Positions 5,546 to 45,921 of a stretch of DNA of 64,000 nt are shown piece after piece. Source of the DNA: a virus; IMG/VR virus record IMGVR_UViG_3300011113_000675, positions 64,001-128,000 of that record. One strand, 5' to 3'. The position numbers and the translations under genes are program-made. The notes beneath the pieces are model-generated. The model was not told where the DNA came from. It searched no databases and saw nothing but the letters and a program-made list of their open reading frames with translations. Numbering within the stretch: the first letter of the stretch is position 1; the number at the start of each line of letters is the position of its first letter.

Positions 5546-5960
5546 GGGGATGAACGGTATTGATTGACATTGTTGGGGATAAGTGGCACGTAGTCAGAAT
5601 TCATCTATGACTTGAATCTATGGTGAAGAAAGTAAACGGCAATACTCTTGCTAAGATGTCTGCTTTAGGTTTGACTAGAGAAGCATCTGTTGTAACTGCT
5701 TAAGAAGTAGATACAACGTCAGGTCGATTGGGCATATAACCTAGGAACAGAAGCCCTCCAAGGTGGATACCACCCAAAGCGTATCAAAAGGTCACGTTCA
5801 GAGGGCTACCTTATTTCAAGTGAACTCGACACAGTTGTTGGTAACGATGTCAAAATAGGAACCATCTATTTCGGAAGGTATGAAAAACCTTGACCTAAAC
5901 GTGTAGGCATTTATTGTCAAAGTGAGCAAGACGCGAGTTCGAATCTCGCCATCTCCACCA
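5546..5960 (+). ncRNA. ssrA: tmRNA, predicted tag GNTLAKMSALGLTREASVVTA* (5638-5703)
   Basis: 5' GGGGATG pairs with 3' CATCTCC-ACCA with a G3:U70 pair; T-arm GCGAG-TTCGAAT-CTCGC; about 415 nt; TAAAC|GGC resume context; TACATTTG promoter element at 5529-5536. Confidence 0.92.
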
Positions 5961-12532: not shown

Positions 12533-12566
12533 AAAAACCCACCTAAGGTGGGTTTCTTTTTTTTTC
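12531..12566. terminator. bidirectional intrinsic terminator
   Basis: aaacccacc-taa-ggtgggttt flanked by A and T runs between convergent genes. Confidence 0.75.
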
Positions 12567-13236: not shown

Positions 13237-13237
13237 G

Positions 13238-13312
13238 TTGGGATAGGTGGACTCGAACCACCAACCTTTCGCGTATCAGACGAAAGCTCTAAACCAATTG
13301 AGCTATATCCCA
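13238..13312 (-). tRNA. tRNA-Ile(GAT)
   Basis: Cloverleaf TGGGATA/TATCCCA; anticodon loop CT-GAT-AC; GGTTCGAGTCC T-arm. Confidence 0.9.
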
Positions 13313-13318
13313 TTGTTG

Positions 13319-13477
13319 CTGTAAGGGAAGGAGTCGAACCTTCACGAGGAGATTCAATTGATAACACAACGCTTGCAAGCTGGTGGTCTACCCCATATTA
13401 TCAATCTATTTCTTTATCCCCGCCCTCGAGACAGGAGGGTGTGTATGCCAAGTTCTAGAACATTTCACCACCTTACA
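13319..13477 (-). ncRNA. atypical tRNA-Asp(GTC)-like RNA with a 79-nt variable arm and an enlarged D-loop
   Basis: TGTAAGG/CCTTACA acceptor stem with G73; CCCTC-CTGTCTC-GAGGG anticodon arm; GAAGG-TTCGACT-CCTTC T-arm. Confidence 0.7.
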
Positions 13478-13491
13478 ATATAAACTTGAAG

Positions 13492-13576
13492 CAGAGAGTA
13501 TTGGATTCGAACCAATGCATCCCTTTCGAGATGACAGATTAGCAATCTGCTCCTTTAACCACTCAGGCAACTCTCT
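13492..13576 (-). tRNA. tRNA-Ser(GCT)
   Basis: AGAGAGT/ACTCTCT, G73, loop TT-GCT-AA, long variable arm. Confidence 0.9.
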
Positions 13577-13580
13577 GTAG

Positions 13581-13651
13581 ATGTCTCATCAGGATTCGAA
13601 CCTGAAAAAACTGAACCAAAATCAGTTGTGTTACCGTTACACCATGAGACA
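13581..13651 (-). tRNA. tRNA-Gln(TTG)
   Basis: TGTCTCA/TGAGACA; ACTGA-TTTTGGT-TCAGT anticodon arm. Confidence 0.88.
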
Positions 13652-13654
13652 AAG

Positions 13655-14056
13655 TTAATACAAACTTTCCTTTTTTACAACCCCCCAATCATATCCACAA
13701 TCTCTATCTAATCTGAAATAGTAATGACCACCAGTAGAATATGCCCTGAACTTTAACATCCAAAAGATTGTATTTTCTAATTCGGAGATTATAGATTCAT
13801 TACCACTCCAACCACAAGTATGGAGTTCAATCATACCATCTTCTTGATTGTATGCATCTGATCCATAGTACCATATTTGTTTGATGTAGTCTAACAGATC
13901 GGTATAATCAGTATTATCGAAAAACTTACCATATACTAACTCACCATCAATCTTTTCACTACCCCAATTTCGGATATACTTTAACGCTTCGTCAGTGGGA
14001 TATCCATCCTCATCTAATAGGTGAAACGGATACAGATAATCTAGTTTATTTTCCAT
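13655..14056 (-). CDS. hypothetical protein
   Basis: ORF inside the tRNA array; HTCGWSGNE and GGHYYF motifs. Confidence 0.7.
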   Translation of the reverse strand: MENKLDYLYPFHLLDEDGYPTDEALKYIRNWGSEKIDGELVYGKFFDNTDYTDLLDYIKQIWYYGSDAYNQEDGMIELHTCGWSGNESIISELENTIFWMLKFRAYSTGGHYYFRLDRDCGYDWGVVKKESLY

Positions 14057-14067
14057 AATTTAATTTT

Positions 14068-14152
14068 TGGTGGGAACGATAGGACTCGAACCTATGAACT
14101 CCTAAGAGAGGAGATTTACAGTCTCCGGCAATTGCCGCTATGCGACGTTCCC
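14068..14152 (-). tRNA. tRNA-Tyr(GTA)
   Basis: GGGAACG/CGTTCCC-ACCA; GGAGA-CTGTAAA-TCTCC; variable arm. Confidence 0.92.
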
Positions 14153-14153
14153 A

Positions 14154-14281
14154 AGGTTAGGAAAGGAGAAGATGGTTCCGTGGACAACTCCTTTTACGAT
14201 TGGCTTTACTACGATGATTCCAAACTCCAAATGTACCACCTCCATCATCAGGTTAACATACATTCCTTCCCCAATCAACCT
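14154..14281 (-). ncRNA. candidate structured ncRNA (about 128 nt) in the tRNA array
   Basis: Terminal AGGTT/AACCT pair with nested GATTGG/CCAATC, GATGAT/ATCATC and AAAGGAG/CTCCTTT stems; no ORF; abuts tRNA-Tyr. Confidence 0.5.
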
Positions 14282-14293
14282 TTATATCTTATA

Positions 14294-14710
14294 CTACTTG
14301 TTTAACAACCAAGACGAAGATTGAATCTTATCACCAAGTCCATCAATCAACTTGATACCCCACCAATCACATACCTGTCTCTCAGGGATTGAATTATTGT
14401 TTTGGTCCCCACCATTGGCGAAAATAAGTTCGTTTGTTGGATCCTCTCCAGAATGAATCAAACCGAGTGTCTTACATACAGTTCTATCCGTATCAATGGA
14501 TAGAAATGCTTTGTCAACCATTTTTAGGTTTTCGATAATGAACATTCTTTCATCTTCGTCTTGGAACTCTTTACTACCTTTCAACTCTCTCTGTTTGTCG
14601 TTATTTACAATTACATAGAGTTTATCCCCATGTTCTTTGGCTTTATTGAAATATTCAATATGACCTTTATGAACAGGATTAAAATATCCGCTTACAATTA
14701 CAATTTTCAT
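14294..14710 (-). CDS. cytidylyltransferase-family (HxGH) nucleotidyltransferase
   Basis: SGYFNPVHKGH, FANGGD and KIQSSSWL motifs. Confidence 0.85.
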   Translation of the reverse strand: MKIVIVSGYFNPVHKGHIEYFNKAKEHGDKLYVIVNNDKQRELKGSKEFQDEDERMFIIENLKMVDKAFLSIDTDRTVCKTLGLIHSGEDPTNELIFANGGDQNNNSIPERQVCDWWGIKLIDGLGDKIQSSSWLLNK

Positions 14711-14895
14711 TTCGTTTCGTAGGTTAAAGTTTCTAATTCTAGTTCACTTTCATAGAAATATGGACATGCCCAAACAGGTTTATCACATTTGAGTTTAACC
14801 ATTCTTCCTTTGTTGTATCCAAGAGAAATGACTATTGCCCATCCTGAATACTTTGTTTTAACTCTGTCTCCAACTTTTAATTCGCTAAATGTCAT
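14707..14895 (-). CDS. small SH3/KOW-like hypothetical protein
   Basis: LKVGDRV motif; overlaps both neighbours. Confidence 0.55.
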   Translation of the reverse strand: MTFSELKVGDRVKTKYSGWAIVISLGYNKGRMVKLKCDKPVWACPYFYESELELETLTYETK

Positions 14896-15193
14896 CTTCT
14901 ACAGTATCGAGTTCAAAGTTACTAAATTTTAATCCCCACATCAAAGAAATCATTGACATTTGTTGTTCAGCCATTTTAGCATACATACGAAGTTCTTTCA
15001 TAAGGTATTTTTTACCCCATTTTTTCCATTCTTCGTTTTGTTCCATAGTCATAGTCCAATCAGTATACCAACTATCCTTACGGTCCTTGACATCGTCAAA
15101 TGTTACGGGATGACCTGCGATCTCGAACATCTTGTTTATCATATCGACAACCATTTTTTGTTTTTTCTGTTCTTTAGATAATCTCGGTTTCAT
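14885..15193 (-). CDS. hypothetical protein
   Basis: ORF following tRNA-Cys. Confidence 0.65.
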   Translation of the reverse strand: MKPRLSKEQKKQKMVVDMINKMFEIAGHPVTFDDVKDRKDSWYTDWTMTMEQNEEWKKWGKKYLMKELRMYAKMAEQQMSMISLMWGLKFSNFELDTVEDDI

Positions 15194-15209
15194 AATTTTT
15201 ATTGTTTAG

Positions 15210-15283
15210 AGGTCAAGAAGGGATTCGAACCCTTGGATACTTGTTTTGCAGACAAGCCCCTTAAGCCACTTGGGTACTTGACC
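15210..15283 (-). tRNA. tRNA-Cys(GCA)
   Basis: GGTCAAG/CTTGACC, U73, CTTGT-CTGCAAA-ACAAG. Confidence 0.9.
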
Positions 15284-15289
15284 GTTTTG

Positions 15290-15361
15290 TGTGACCGAAG
15301 AGAATCGAACTCTTACATGAAGTGCCACAAACTTCCGCCCTACCATTAGGCCACAGCCACC
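15290..15361 (-). tRNA. tRNA-His(GTG)
   Basis: G-1, GTGGCTG/CGGTCAC, GAAGT-TTGTGGC-ACTTC; discriminator is A. Confidence 0.85.
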
Positions 15362-15376
15362 ATATAATCTTAATGT

Positions 15377-15444
15377 AAGTCAGGACGGGTTTCTAACCCG
15401 CTCTTCAGTTAATCACTGCGTGCTGCCATTTACACCACCTGACT
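15377..15444 (-). ncRNA. degenerate tRNA-like RNA (AGTCAGG acceptor family, copy 1)
   Basis: AGTCAGG/CCTGACT stem, D-arm, shrunken anticodon arm CAGT-GATTA-ACTG, T-loop TTAGAAA. Confidence 0.55.
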
Positions 15445-15510
15445 AATTTTTAGATTTCTAAAACTCATCCCTAACGGGGTAAAGAAACTCCATCTTATTT
15501 GTTTTTTGCG

Positions 15511-15602
15511 TAGTCAGGACAGGATTCGAACCTGTAACTTTTGTCTTTTGGTTCCGAAAATCGGATTACTCACCAACACGTTACCCTTGCGTCACCTGAC
15601 TA
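15511..15602 (-). ncRNA. tRNA-like RNA (AGTCAGG acceptor family, copy 2) with the anticodon loop replaced by a 19-nt insert
   Basis: AGTCAGG/CCTGACT-A; perfect ACAGG-TTCGAAT-CCTGT T-arm; TTGGT...ACCAA stem enclosing the hairpin TCCGA-TTT-TCGGA. Confidence 0.6.
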
Positions 15603-15611
15603 TAAAGTGAA

Positions 15612-15688
15612 TGGTACTCCGTACGGGACTCGAACCCGTAAGCTCTCCCGTGAAAGGGGAGTGTCCTAACCAATTAGACGAACGGAGC
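15612..15688 (-). tRNA. tRNA-Glu(TTC)
   Basis: GCTCCGT/ACGGAGT-ACCA; CTCCC-CTTTCAC-GGGAG. Confidence 0.92.
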
Positions 15689-15716
15689 TTGTTTGTCTTA
15701 CAAAGATACTACAATA

Positions 15717-15727
15717 TTTCAAAGAAC
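15717..15727 (-). promoter_or_regulatory. boxA-like GTTCTTTGAAA element (identical copy at 16925-16935)
   Basis: Resembles the rrn antitermination boxA; both copies sit next to tRNA genes. Confidence 0.4.
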
Positions 15728-15739
15728 AAAAGAAGTCAT

Positions 15740-15776
15740 AAAAAAACCCCGAACTTTTTTTAAGAGTTCGGGGTTT
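15740..15776 (-). terminator. intrinsic terminator / candidate attenuator upstream of the tRNA array
   Basis: 12-bp stem AAACCCCGAACT/AGTTCGGGGTTT ending in a U7 tract on the minus strand. Confidence 0.8.
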
Positions 15777-15813
15777 GAAAAATTAGTTTTTACAAGTAAA
15801 AAAAATTTCTATC

Positions 15814-15903
15814 TTATGACATCCGAACTACAGGGCAAATAGGTTCATAACAACAATTTTCTTGTTGATTATTACTGATAATATTATGACTTGTAGTTCT
15901 CAT
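15814..15903 (-). CDS. candidate leader peptide MRTTSHNIISNNQQENCCYEPICPVVRMS (29 aa)
   Basis: Manual translation from ATG(15903) to TAA(15814); lies between a promoter and the terminator; contains AGTTCGG complementary to the terminator 5' arm. Confidence 0.7.
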   Translation of the reverse strand: MRTTSHNIISNNQQENCCYEPICPVVRMS

Positions 15904-15919
15904 TGTTCTATAATTACTT

Positions 15920-15950
15920 CAAATGTATGAAATGTTTTAATTTTGTCAAA
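15920..15950 (-). promoter_or_regulatory. Bacteroidota-type sigma-A promoter of the leader/tRNA operon
   Basis: TTTG-N19-TACATTTG on the minus strand, ending 16 nt before the leader ATG. Confidence 0.7.
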
Positions 15951-15997
15951 TGTTTTTTATGGATAGAACTTTTAATTCTATGCATATATTTATTATT

Positions 15998-16369
15998 ATG
16001 GAAAAAAAAGTTTGTTCAACCTGCAATGAAGAAAAACCATTGACTGATTTTTATTTGCGCAATTCAAGAAATAATAAACCTTATGATAGATGTAAAAAAT
16101 GTTTTAACCGTTATTGTGGTGACCGATGGATCACTAAAAAGATTAACGCAATAATTTACAAAGGTTCTAAATGCCTTGATTGCTTTTTATCCTATCCTAA
16201 TGAACCATATGTAATTTTTGATTTTCATCATCGTGAGCCAAACGAAAAAGATTTCGATTGGGGTAAATTAAGATTGAAATCTGATAATACCATAAAGTCC
16301 GAATTAGATAAATGTGATTTACTATGTTCAAATTGTCATAGAAAACGACATCATTTATCTGATTTGTAG
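15998..16369 (+). CDS. HNH endonuclease with zinc-finger motifs
   Basis: CSTC..CKKC, CLDC, FDFHH, CDLLCSNCHRKRH; antisense to the tRNA cluster. Confidence 0.8.
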   Translation: MEKKVCSTCNEEKPLTDFYLRNSRNNKPYDRCKKCFNRYCGDRWITKKINAIIYKGSKCLDCFLSYPNEPYVIFDFHHREPNEKDFDWGKLRLKSDNTIKSELDKCDLLCSNCHRKRHHLSDL

Positions 16370-19532: not shown

Positions 19533-19617
19533 CAGAGGAGGACGGATTCGAACCCCCGTTACCTTTCAGTAAAATAGTTTTCAAGACTACCGCCATAAAC
19601 CACTCGGCCACTCCTCT
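19533..19617 (-). tRNA. tRNA-Ser(TGA)
   Basis: AGAGGAG/CTCCTCT, G73, GTAGT-CTTGAAA-ACTAT, variable arm. Confidence 0.88.
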
Positions 19618-20110
19618 ATTTTATTACTTTGTACCCAAAATTATGTAAAACATCTTTACATAATTCTATAAATTCTTCAACACTTAAATTACCTTTAGCA
19701 AAATTTGCTTCGGGTGTTGCAACACCCAAGTTTTCAAAAGTAGATTCACCACCCTTGGATACAGGAACAATATGGTCAAATTGATATTTAGTCACATCCG
19801 ACGTATCAATTTCCCTACCCGATAAATAACATTTCGTTACTGAGTCCAAATACTCTTGGATTTTGACTCTATCGAAATATTTCGAATTATACGTTATGTT
19901 TTCACCTTTATATCTATCGATAAAGTGCTCCTGTTTTTTTAACCAAGGATGTAGATTTCTTTGTTTTACCACTCTCTGATACGCTTTTTCTTTTTGTCCT
20001 AATCCACAATGGTATGATATTGTAGAACGAGAACATCCAAGTTCTTTTTCTATTTGTTTGTAACTTTTTCCCTCTTCCCTAAGATTTAGTATCTGTTTTT
20101 TTAATTCCAT
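19616..20110 (-). CDS. HTH plus HNH endonuclease
   Basis: N-terminal HTH ([21 protein letters not shown]); [14 protein letters not shown]. Confidence 0.85.
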
Positions 20111-20236
20111 ACATATAAATATAAGGTTCGAAACAAAAAGATACGAACTTAAACACAAATAATAGGAATGAGTATTTGCAACTGCCCATTCCCTTCAAAA
20201 GACCTACCCTGGTACGTTCTAGCGTGGTAAGTAATT

Positions 20237-21284: not shown

Positions 21285-21770
21285 ATGAGTACAGTATTAG
21301 TTTTGAACTCTGATTACACTCCTTTGAATGTAACAAGTGTACAGAGAGGATTTGTTTTGGTCACCAAAGGAAAGGCGGAAGTGTTAAGGTCGGATGAGAA
21401 TCCAATTGTAACAGGTTACAAGACGTTTATACGACCCGTTATCATACGCCTATTGAAATATATCAGACATAGAACAAGGCTCAATAAACCGAATCGTAGT
21501 CGTATCTATAAAAGGGACGGATATGAGTGTGTTTATTGTGGGTCAAAAAAGAATCTAACATTAGACCACGTAATACCCAAATCAAGAGGAGGTTCCAATG
21601 AATGGACAAACTTAGTTACTTGTTGCTCAAAGTGTAATAGAGATAAGGACAACAAAACTCCTGAGGAAGCTAAAATGCTAATGAAAAAACCAGCATACGA
21701 ACCACCAATAATGTATGATAATGTGGTATTATTAAATGTCTGGACAGATTTTCAGAAATCTTTTGTATAA
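21285..21770 (+). CDS. HNH endonuclease (McrA/HNH_5-like)
   Basis: RDGYECVYCG, TLDHVIPKSRGG, NLVTCCSKCN. Confidence 0.9.
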   Translation: MSTVLVLNSDYTPLNVTSVQRGFVLVTKGKAEVLRSDENPIVTGYKTFIRPVIIRLLKYIRHRTRLNKPNRSRIYKRDGYECVYCGSKKNLTLDHVIPKSRGGSNEWTNLVTCCSKCNRDKDNKTPEEAKMLMKKPAYEPPIMYDNVVLLNVWTDFQKSFV

Positions 21771-21791: not shown

Positions 21792-22490
21792 GTGGAAAAT
21801 AAATTAGATATGAACATCGGACAAGAATTTCAAAACTATTACGTAAAACATTTGGGTAAGGGGTCCTTGGACCTTCACAATTTCTCAAGTCAAATTCAAT
21901 CATCAATGACTCCTTATATTCTTGAAGAACGAGAAATGAGAGCAACTCAAATCGATATCTTCTCAAGATTGATGAGAGACAGAATTATTTGGGTGGCTGG
22001 TCCTGTGGATGATAGAATGTCCACTATTGTACAAGCACAGTTAATGTTTATGGACAATGTTGATAAGACGGACATTACAATGCACATTGATAGTCCAGGT
22101 GGAAGTGTGAAGTCAGGATTGTCTATGGTTGATGTAATGAACTACATTGCTTGTGATATCAGAACTGTAAACACGGGTATGGCGGCATCTATGGGTTCCG
22201 TATTGTTGGGGGCAGGAACCAAAGGAAAGAGAAGTTCATTAAGATTTTCGAGAACGATGTTACACCAATCTTCTGGAGGATTCGGAGGAAATATTCAGGA
22301 TGCTGAAATCAGTATGAAAGAATGGCATAAATTGAATGACATTCTATTTAATCTTCTTGGTGAGTACTGTGGAAAAGACCCTGAACAAGTTAAGTTAGAC
22401 GCTACCCGAGATTTGTGGTTAGATAGTGAACAAGCTCTCGAATATGGAATTATTGACGAGATTGTTAAAACGAAAAAGAGGGGTAAATAA
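21792..22490 (+). CDS. clpP: ATP-dependent Clp protease proteolytic subunit
   Basis: DIFSRL, DSPGG, AASMG (Ser), MLHQ (His), RDLW (Asp). Confidence 0.95.
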   Translation: MENKLDMNIGQEFQNYYVKHLGKGSLDLHNFSSQIQSSMTPYILEEREMRATQIDIFSRLMRDRIIWVAGPVDDRMSTIVQAQLMFMDNVDKTDITMHIDSPGGSVKSGLSMVDVMNYIACDIRTVNTGMAASMGSVLLGAGTKGKRSSLRFSRTMLHQSSGGFGGNIQDAEISMKEWHKLNDILFNLLGEYCGKDPEQVKLDATRDLWLDSEQALEYGIIDEIVKTKKRGK

Positions 22491-45828: not shown

Positions 45829-45921
45829 TGGTGGCTGGGAGTGGGTTCGAACCACTGGCTCATCGGTGTTCACCCGATTGCTCTACCATGAATTCCGAAG
45901 AACTCCTGAGCTACCACAACC
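45829..45921 (-). ncRNA. atypical tRNA-Phe(GAA)-like RNA with a UUCG hairpin inserted in the D-loop
   Basis: Bulged acceptor GGTTG(T)GG/CCCAGCC-ACCA; GCTC/GAGC D-stem; ATCGG-GTGAACA-CCGAT; AGTGG-TTCGAAC-CCACT. Confidence 0.7.

Follow-up and report, generated by a model that had tools for sequence, protein, structure and literature searches.

A putative leader-peptide attenuator with codons matched to its downstream tRNA genes in a large uncultured phage

The 64,000-nucleotide (nt) stretch analysed here (hereafter, the window; positions 64,001 to 128,000 of IMG/VR virus record IMGVR_UViG_3300011113_000675) carries, ahead of a block of seven tRNA genes, a compact element that is probably a ribosome-mediated (leader-peptide) transcription attenuator gating that block. 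The structural hallmarks of an attenuator are all present, namely a leader open reading frame (ORF), an intrinsic terminator, mutually exclusive helices (termed 1:2 and 2:3) and regulatory codons cognate to the tRNAs downstream. A preliminary description of the window had proposed such an attenuator, and the proposal is supported here by the conservation of the 1:2, 2:3 and 3:4 pairings with compensatory changes among related phages, by a codon match that is specific to one reading frame, and by a second leader, alpha, found in the relatives. From the sequence we infer that the ORF is translated, and likewise the direction of the response and its physiological trigger. The window is part of a 142-kb record with an estimated completeness of 46%. 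Positions are window coordinates, and the features of the attenuator, all of which lie on the minus strand, are listed below with the tRNA genes and the basis of each assignment.

15920-15950, minus strand: promoter P1, with TTTG at -33 (15950-15947), a 19-nt spacer and TACATTTG at -7 (15927-15920); from sequence
15814-15903, minus strand: leader ORF, termed beta, of 29 codons and a stop; from sequence and relatives
15892-15899, minus strand: region 1, GAACTACA, codons 2-4, which pairs with region 2; from minimum free energy (MFE) folds, duplex energies against shuffles and pair counts on 21 sequences
15851-15867, minus strand: inner hairpin, CAACAA, a 5-nt loop and TTGTTG, codons 13-18; invariant in all sequences, in part by ascertainment, as the pattern scans described below required it
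15823-15832, minus strand: region 2, TGTAGTTCGG, codons 24-27, whose partner is region 1 or the terminator 5' arm; from pairing tests
15740-15776, minus strand: intrinsic terminator, with region 3 (15776-15765), a 9-nt loop, region 4 (15755-15744) and a T-tract (15746-15740); from its stem of 12 base pairs (bp) and seven T
15701-15730, minus strand: promoter P2, TTTG, an 18-nt spacer and TATCTTTG, between the terminator and tRNA-Glu; from sequence and relatives
15612-15688, minus strand: tRNA-Glu(ttc), the first gene of the gated block; from ARAGORN and Rfam
15209-15360, minus strand: tRNA-His(gtg) and tRNA-Cys(gca); from ARAGORN and Rfam
14068-14152, minus strand: tRNA-Tyr(gta); from ARAGORN and Rfam
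13237-13651, minus strand: tRNA-Gln(ttg), tRNA-Ser(gct) and tRNA-Ile(gat); from ARAGORN and Rfam

P1, the 29-codon ORF, the terminator with its seven U residues and the seven tRNA genes were all found where the preliminary description had placed them, and the promoter-like site that it had noted downstream of the terminator corresponds to P2, which is conserved in the relatives. The ORF begins 16 nt past the -7 box of P1, and P2 ends 13 nt upstream of tRNA-Glu. Both promoters have a two-box motif that we take to be of the Bacteroidota type; it occurs at 12 sites in the window, P1 and P2 among them, versus 2.3 +/- 1.6 in shuffled sequences. The terminator was missed by a consensus scan because its loop is longer than 8 nt.

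Forty-seven related viral contigs were retrieved with the small conserved protein encoded inside the array (14885-15193), and further relatives were added by two DNA-pattern scans. Together these yielded 21 distinct versions of the module from IMG/VR contigs of up to 326 kb, which represent uncultured large phages and are divided into groups A (that of the window), B, B', C and D. One module-bearing relative is a 326-kb contig rated complete. The exact terminator pattern gave no matches in IMG/VR because the relatives have G-U variants. P1, the ORF and the terminator are present in 21 of 21 versions, so that the short ORF and terminator ahead of tRNA genes, whose conservation the preliminary description had named as a check, recur in 21 relatives. 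The P1 motif is maintained in all groups despite differing spacers. P2 is invariant in group A and is found in every group, the exception being L006 (relatives and their modules are designated by such numbers). In L006/L103 the P2 -7 box and tRNA-Glu are both lost after the beta terminator, and the first downstream tRNA is tRNA-Cys, which starts 300 nt from the leader ATG.

The codon content of the beta leader follows the tRNA genes that it precedes. Of the 28 leader codons in the window, 14 have a cognate tRNA among the seven that follow, compared with 25% of codons in long ORFs of the window (binomial P=0.004). Each of the seven has a cognate leader codon, as had been noted before; coverage of all seven species is reached by 0.8-1.3% of random 28-codon samples and by 3% of the window's other 25-35-codon ATG ORFs. 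Confined to the window, the codon claim is nominally significant, and because this figure is post hoc the case rests on the relatives, from which complete tRNA arrays were fetched for the codon-tRNA tests. A cognate codon is present in the leader for 150 of 158 downstream tRNA species versus 47 of 83 upstream species. Full coverage was simulated with random ORFs of this phage's codon usage, giving P=0.008 for the window (7/7), P=0.001 for L002 (11/11), P=2e-5 for L079 (14/14) and P<5e-6 for L007 (14/14; 0 of 200,000 trials).

Leader and array also change together. A-type leaders have Asn and Gly codons, and A-type arrays have tRNA-Asn and tRNA-Gly downstream; the leaders of groups B', C and D have Met, CGY-Arg, Val, Phe, Lys and ATA codons at positions that differ by group, with the matching tRNAs in their arrays. 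In cross-fits, A-type leaders score 17/17 on the A-type array and 11-14/17 on D-type arrays, and leaders of the D, B' and C types (L007-L079) score 11-14 on the L002 array versus 13-17 on the L007 and L079 arrays. Within one sister pair, L007 has tRNA-Phe, tRNA-Lys and tRNA-Arg(acg), absent in L005, and carries TTT, AAA and CGT where the L005 codons differ. L070, without tRNA-Lys, tRNA-Arg(acg) and tRNA-Val, has AAA, CGT and GTC replaced; L076 and L083 have tRNA-Asn downstream and three extra Asn codons; and the window, without tRNA-Trp and tRNA-Gly, has TGT, AGT and CCT where relatives have TGG and GGT. Over seven sister pairs, picked after the data had been inspected, the concordance S (tRNA-set change multiplied by codon-count change) is 14 versus 0.07 +/- 3.86 under permutation of tRNA classes, with P=1.5e-4 when codons 5-21 are considered and P=0.004 when all are. 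The co-variation of leader codons with the array, a further check proposed in the preliminary description, is therefore seen.

The match to the tRNAs is confined to the frame of the ORF, which is the strongest argument for that frame. Beta leaders hold 256 cognate codons in frame 0 versus 153 and 120 in the shifted frames, and for alpha leaders the counts are 127 versus 46 and 56. The frame is open in all 21 distinct versions, while frames +1 and +2 contain 1-5 stops each, and the ATG lies exactly 36 nt ahead of the inner hairpin in 21 of 21. Groups A and B differ by a deletion and an insertion of one base each, separated by nine bases, which together restore the frame within three codons and leave the nucleotides aligned. 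At the 3' end, insertions and deletions (indels) shift the frame, giving a variable C-terminus and a stop codon that falls anywhere from inside region 2 (-4) to 30 nt past it. Single-step codon differences are 14 synonymous versus 55 non-synonymous, and the peptide, which is not conserved, is for this reason not constrained.

Genomes of groups B to D carry a second module, alpha, ahead of tRNA-Pro and the first tRNA block, which runs in the order Pro, Asn, Asp, Gly, Thr, sometimes Ala, and then Leu, Arg, Leu.

L104 (on the L007 contig), 411-570: alpha module; also L102, L105, L107, L108, L111 and L113-L126

The alpha ORF has 31-33 codons and is followed by a similar terminator, and the layout of 1:2, inner hairpin, 2:3 and 3:4 is that of beta. 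The ORF is composed largely of Leu, Thr, Asn, Pro, Gly, Asp, Ala and AGA-Arg codons, matching the set of the first block. Tabulated within genomes, leader (alpha or beta) and block-specific cognate codons are associated with Fisher P values of 5e-3 to 8e-7; the pooled two-by-two table has 127 and 35 in its first row and 32 and 104 in its second. Judged by codon content, alpha is an independent replicate of the match between leader codons and tRNA block. Eleven of 12 distinct alpha modules have a 2:3 helix with 7-9 uninterrupted Watson-Crick pairs, and at a position in the terminator loop, which the terminator does not constrain, the pair is G-C, A-U or U-A. In 7 of the 12 modules only 5-12 nt separate the T-tract from tRNA-Pro, with no -7 box, and these first blocks can therefore be reached by read-through only, which argues that the terminators of those modules are regulatory. 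No alpha module was found before tRNA-Met in the window or in the other group A genomes.

The leader transcript is predicted to adopt three mutually exclusive pairings. The 2:3 helix of the window joins AGTTCGG (15829-15823) to CCGAACT (15771-15765), a 7-bp antiterminator complementarity that the preliminary description had located correctly. The 1:2 helix, which pairs GAACTACA (15899-15892) with TGTAGTTC (15832-15825), had gone unnoticed. The MFE fold of every version has 1:2 closed around the inner hairpin, then a spacer hairpin and then the 3:4 terminator. When the sequences are folded without the terminator 3' arm and with a ribosome footprint on codons 6-10, so that region 1 is masked, 2:3 forms in every group. 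Its extent varies as follows.

Group A: 7 bp, AGTTCGG with CCGAACT
Group B: 7+3 bp with a bulge
Group B': 9 bp
Group C: 10 bp, extending into the terminator loop
Group D: 6+3 bp around one mismatch

The earlier caveat that the antiterminator measures only 7 bp thus holds for the window, which has the weakest version, and does not extend to other groups, where the helix reaches 9-10 bp. The 1:2 and 2:3 duplexes jointly surpass 500 shuffles of region 2 in 21 of 21 versions (joint P<=0.002). Over the alignment of 21 sequences, 80.5% of positions are paired in 1:2, 96.4% in 3:4 and 82.9% in 2:3, versus 29-50% overall in controls with a slid partner (29-41% for 2:3). Three pairs of 2:3 have changed on both sides, which supplies the compensatory changes that the preliminary description had suggested looking for, and the covariation score of 0.214 (versus 0.177 +/- 0.013) was reached by 1 of 500 shuffles. 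At one 2:3 position, occupied by G or A in region 2 and by C or U in region 3, the combinations G-C, G-U and A-U are seen and A with C never. In the terminator one pair has changed on both sides, C-G becoming U-A in group C, and G-U variants occur elsewhere. RNAalifold on a MAFFT alignment recovered only the inner hairpin and the terminator because indels shift region 1 out of register, and per-sequence folds and duplex tests were therefore used.

In the mechanism that we propose, the 29-codon ORF would be carried on transcripts from P1 and on read-through from the upstream tRNA genes. With no translation, region 1 would pair with region 2, the 3:4 helix would form and transcription would stop before tRNA-Glu. 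With fast translation, a ribosome at the stop codon, which in the window lies 6 nt past region 2, would cover region 2, and the terminator would again form. A ribosome, or a queue of ribosomes, delayed at codons 5 to 21 or thereabouts would mask region 1 and leave region 2 free to pair with region 3, allowing RNA polymerase to continue into tRNA-Glu, His, Cys, Tyr, Gln, Ser and Ile. As the control codons are those decoded by the block's own tRNAs, the circuit would be one of negative feedback, with output rising when decoding is slow. P2, outside the switch, is predicted to provide basal, attenuator-independent transcription and hence a basal tRNA level. More tentatively, large phages may possess a modular tRNA-supply circuit in which each block is gated by its own codon-matched leader, so that decoding in the infected cell is gauged for each codon class, the block running short is topped up and leaders co-evolve with the gain and loss of tRNA genes; the shortage could conceivably arise from host tRNA decay or from the anticodon nucleases of defence systems.

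Several observations weigh against the attenuator reading. Each tRNA is represented by one to three codons, which occur at most as pairs (CAA CAA, AAT AAT) and never in tandem runs; such runs are typical of leader-peptide attenuators, though not strictly required. Owing to these small numbers the leader should respond only modestly when a single tRNA is lost, and a joint slow-down across the block should be better sensed. Modelling of classical attenuators links hypersensitivity to many regulatory codons (PMC1183508), which is unfavourable to a leader with so few for each tRNA. Of the 14 matching codons in the window, six belong to the inner hairpin, which is invariant, and structural demands may account for their fixation. 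Mismatches also occur: L061 has tRNA-Trp without TGG, L004 has tRNA-Gly without a Gly codon, and in L063/L066, L051, L075 and L076 tRNAs have been lost and the leader codons retained. We infer that most of these mismatches represent a lag, with arrays shedding tRNA genes before the leader changes. The window leader has four Asn codons and the window no tRNA-Asn; tRNA-Asn(gtt) stands immediately after the attenuator in L002, L062 and L001, and the four codons would fit an ancestral tRNA-Asn(gtt) since lost in the window.

Other difficulties concern the switch and the sample. The calculated energies in the window are -11.3 kcal/mol for 1:2, -10.7 kcal/mol for 2:3 and -20.1 kcal/mol for the terminator, so that the 7-bp 2:3 helix must act kinetically. 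The group C stop codon, some 30 nt beyond region 2, is a poor fit to masking by a ribosome at the stop. Part of the window's array transcripts, possibly a large part, would bypass the attenuator by way of P2. As evidence of translation, avoidance of stop codons taken alone is not significant (P=0.11). The choice of sister pairs after inspection lessens the force of the co-variation test, and a 4-kb query of the phage collection returned matches to tRNA genes only and no cultured relative.

Some of these points would suit a translation-coupled sensor of general translation capacity (ribosome supply, coupling or infection stage), or a response of opposite sign. In groups B and D the start codon lies within the 1:2 helix or next to it, so that initiation could be the sensed step; the distance from region 2 to the stop codon, spanning -4 to +30 nt, means that masking of region 2 at the stop is not uniform; and the scarcity of codons for each tRNA points the same way (PMC1183508). 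A sensor of this kind would need no particular codons, yet in both of the paralogous leaders the codon sets track the tRNA block, and do so at positions that shift, and we consider this explanation unlikely.

It is rather improbable that P1, the ORF and the terminator constitute a tiny gene in their own right, which encodes a micropeptide or a structured small RNA and insulates the array, with the tRNAs transcribed from P2 and the codon match due to coincidence or shared composition. The conservation of P2 so close to tRNA-Glu would agree with this, as would the invariance of codons 13-18, the core of the leader, and the predicted fold of the window transcript, a rod plus terminator (z=-4.3) like that of many small RNAs. 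However, the peptide shows no amino-acid constraint and its C-terminal frame differs among relatives, whereas the codon match is frame-specific, co-varies with tRNA content and is replicated by alpha with a complementary codon set. In most alpha modules the space after the terminator is too short for a promoter, and a plain terminator does not explain why 2:3 co-varies at positions in the terminator loop.

Searches of the leader region against the Rfam leader families gave none at threshold, the best matches being Phe_leader (RF01859, 20.8 bits versus 55) and His_leader (RF00514, 19.2 bits versus 49) at E=0.3-0.6; the T-box covariance model found nothing that reached its gathering threshold across the window, nor anything at E<=10 within 15650-16000. 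A ribosome-independent switch, in which a protein or tRNA binds the leader RNA in T-box fashion and selects 2:3 or 3:4, is hardly credible: alternative helices alone are no proof that a ribosome is involved, but no Rfam family reaches threshold, the frame is kept through compensating indels with the tRNA match in that frame only, and a T-box reads one specifier codon, not about twenty.

The transcription unit gated by the putative attenuator likely ends at a hairpin downstream of the last tRNA gene.

12535-12555, strand unassigned: hairpin terminator about 680 nt past tRNA-Ile; from sequence

A hairpin of this same CCCACC/GGTGGG type also follows the last tRNA in relatives. Scattered among the tRNA genes are a cytidylyltransferase-like gene (PF01467; 14294-14710, minus strand) and three small conserved ORFs, all of which would be co-transcribed with the block. 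Between tRNA-Glu and tRNA-His lie two tRNA-like elements (15370-15605, minus strand) with a common acceptor stem and abnormal anticodon arms, one of which is read by relaxed ARAGORN as an intron-bearing tRNA-Arg(tcg); they were considered as the missing tRNA-Asn and rejected, having no similarity to the tRNA-Asn of the relatives. In the close relatives L001, L002 and L004, tRNA-Arg(tct) is the module's immediate upstream neighbour. Between tRNA-Arg and P1 the window has a plus-strand gene (15998-16369) that is not at this spot in those three. It has HNH-like motifs (several CxxC followed by HH...N...H) and gave no Pfam match at E<0.01, and is likely a mobile endonuclease insertion; two more HNH genes are found in the window at 19616-20158 and 21285-21770.

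The window also encodes a full-length tmRNA (5546-5960, plus strand; Rfam RF00023, 76.6 bits) and a ClpP protease (21792-22490), which, together with the tRNA arrays, suggests that the phage carries its own parts for ribosome rescue and tagging. An element at 45829-45921 (minus strand), called tRNA-SeC(tca) by ARAGORN and scoring 24.6 bits, below threshold, with the Rfam tRNA model, may be a suppressor-like or degenerate tRNA. Long (120-139 nt), weak matches to the tRNA model in the arrays of relatives (G006:C1:136114-136587, G009:C1:17359-17479 and G004:C1:168681-168801) may represent tRNAs carrying large insertions. The additional terminators of L068 and L075, located ahead of tRNA-Leu and tRNA-Ile, were rejected as leaders, being plain terminator-promoter junctions after ordinary protein genes.

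Why phages carry tRNA genes is debated, and the regulation of these genes is largely obscure. Full-text literature searches returned no account of leader-peptide attenuation of tRNA genes. Small ORFs have reportedly been described in the tRNA region of phage T5. If the attenuator reading is true, this would be the first attenuation mechanism for tRNA genes known to us, and no attenuator described so far would be as multivalent. Each of the phage's tRNA blocks would then tune itself, because its product would feed back on its own synthesis through the ribosome. The module would also provide a sequence signature by which tRNA regulation could be annotated in giant phages from metagenomes and, again if the reading is true, a natural sensor of codon-specific decoding speed that could help in the study of tRNA-targeting defence systems.

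Among known systems, T-box riboswitches resemble the phage element in sensing tRNA status through a choice between terminator and antiterminator; they differ in being ribosome-free, with one specifier codon, a large conserved Stem I and a T-box motif. The helices of the trp leader have energies of about -11, -12 and -20 kcal/mol, near those of the window, and that leader has two regulatory codons in tandem. The E. coli trp and Salmonella his attenuators (PMC1183508) share with the phage element a leader ORF, mutually exclusive 1:2, 2:3 and 3:4 pairings, an intrinsic terminator that is the 3:4 helix, and regulatory codons that relate to what the downstream genes supply. Unlike them, the phage element would gate tRNAs and not biosynthetic enzymes, and would address 7-14 tRNA species with one to three codons each. 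Its region 1 lies at codons 2-4 and not over the control codons, it has a second promoter past the terminator, and it is phage-borne, with promoters of the Bacteroidota type. The ilvGMEDA, ilvBN and thr leaders are multivalent, with mixed codons. They are listed among the attenuators (PMC1183508) and are alike in that one leader integrates several shortages. These leaders sense two or three related amino acids through repeated codons, whereas the phage leader would respond to as many as 14 unrelated tRNA species and appears to track the gain and loss of tRNA genes in its array.

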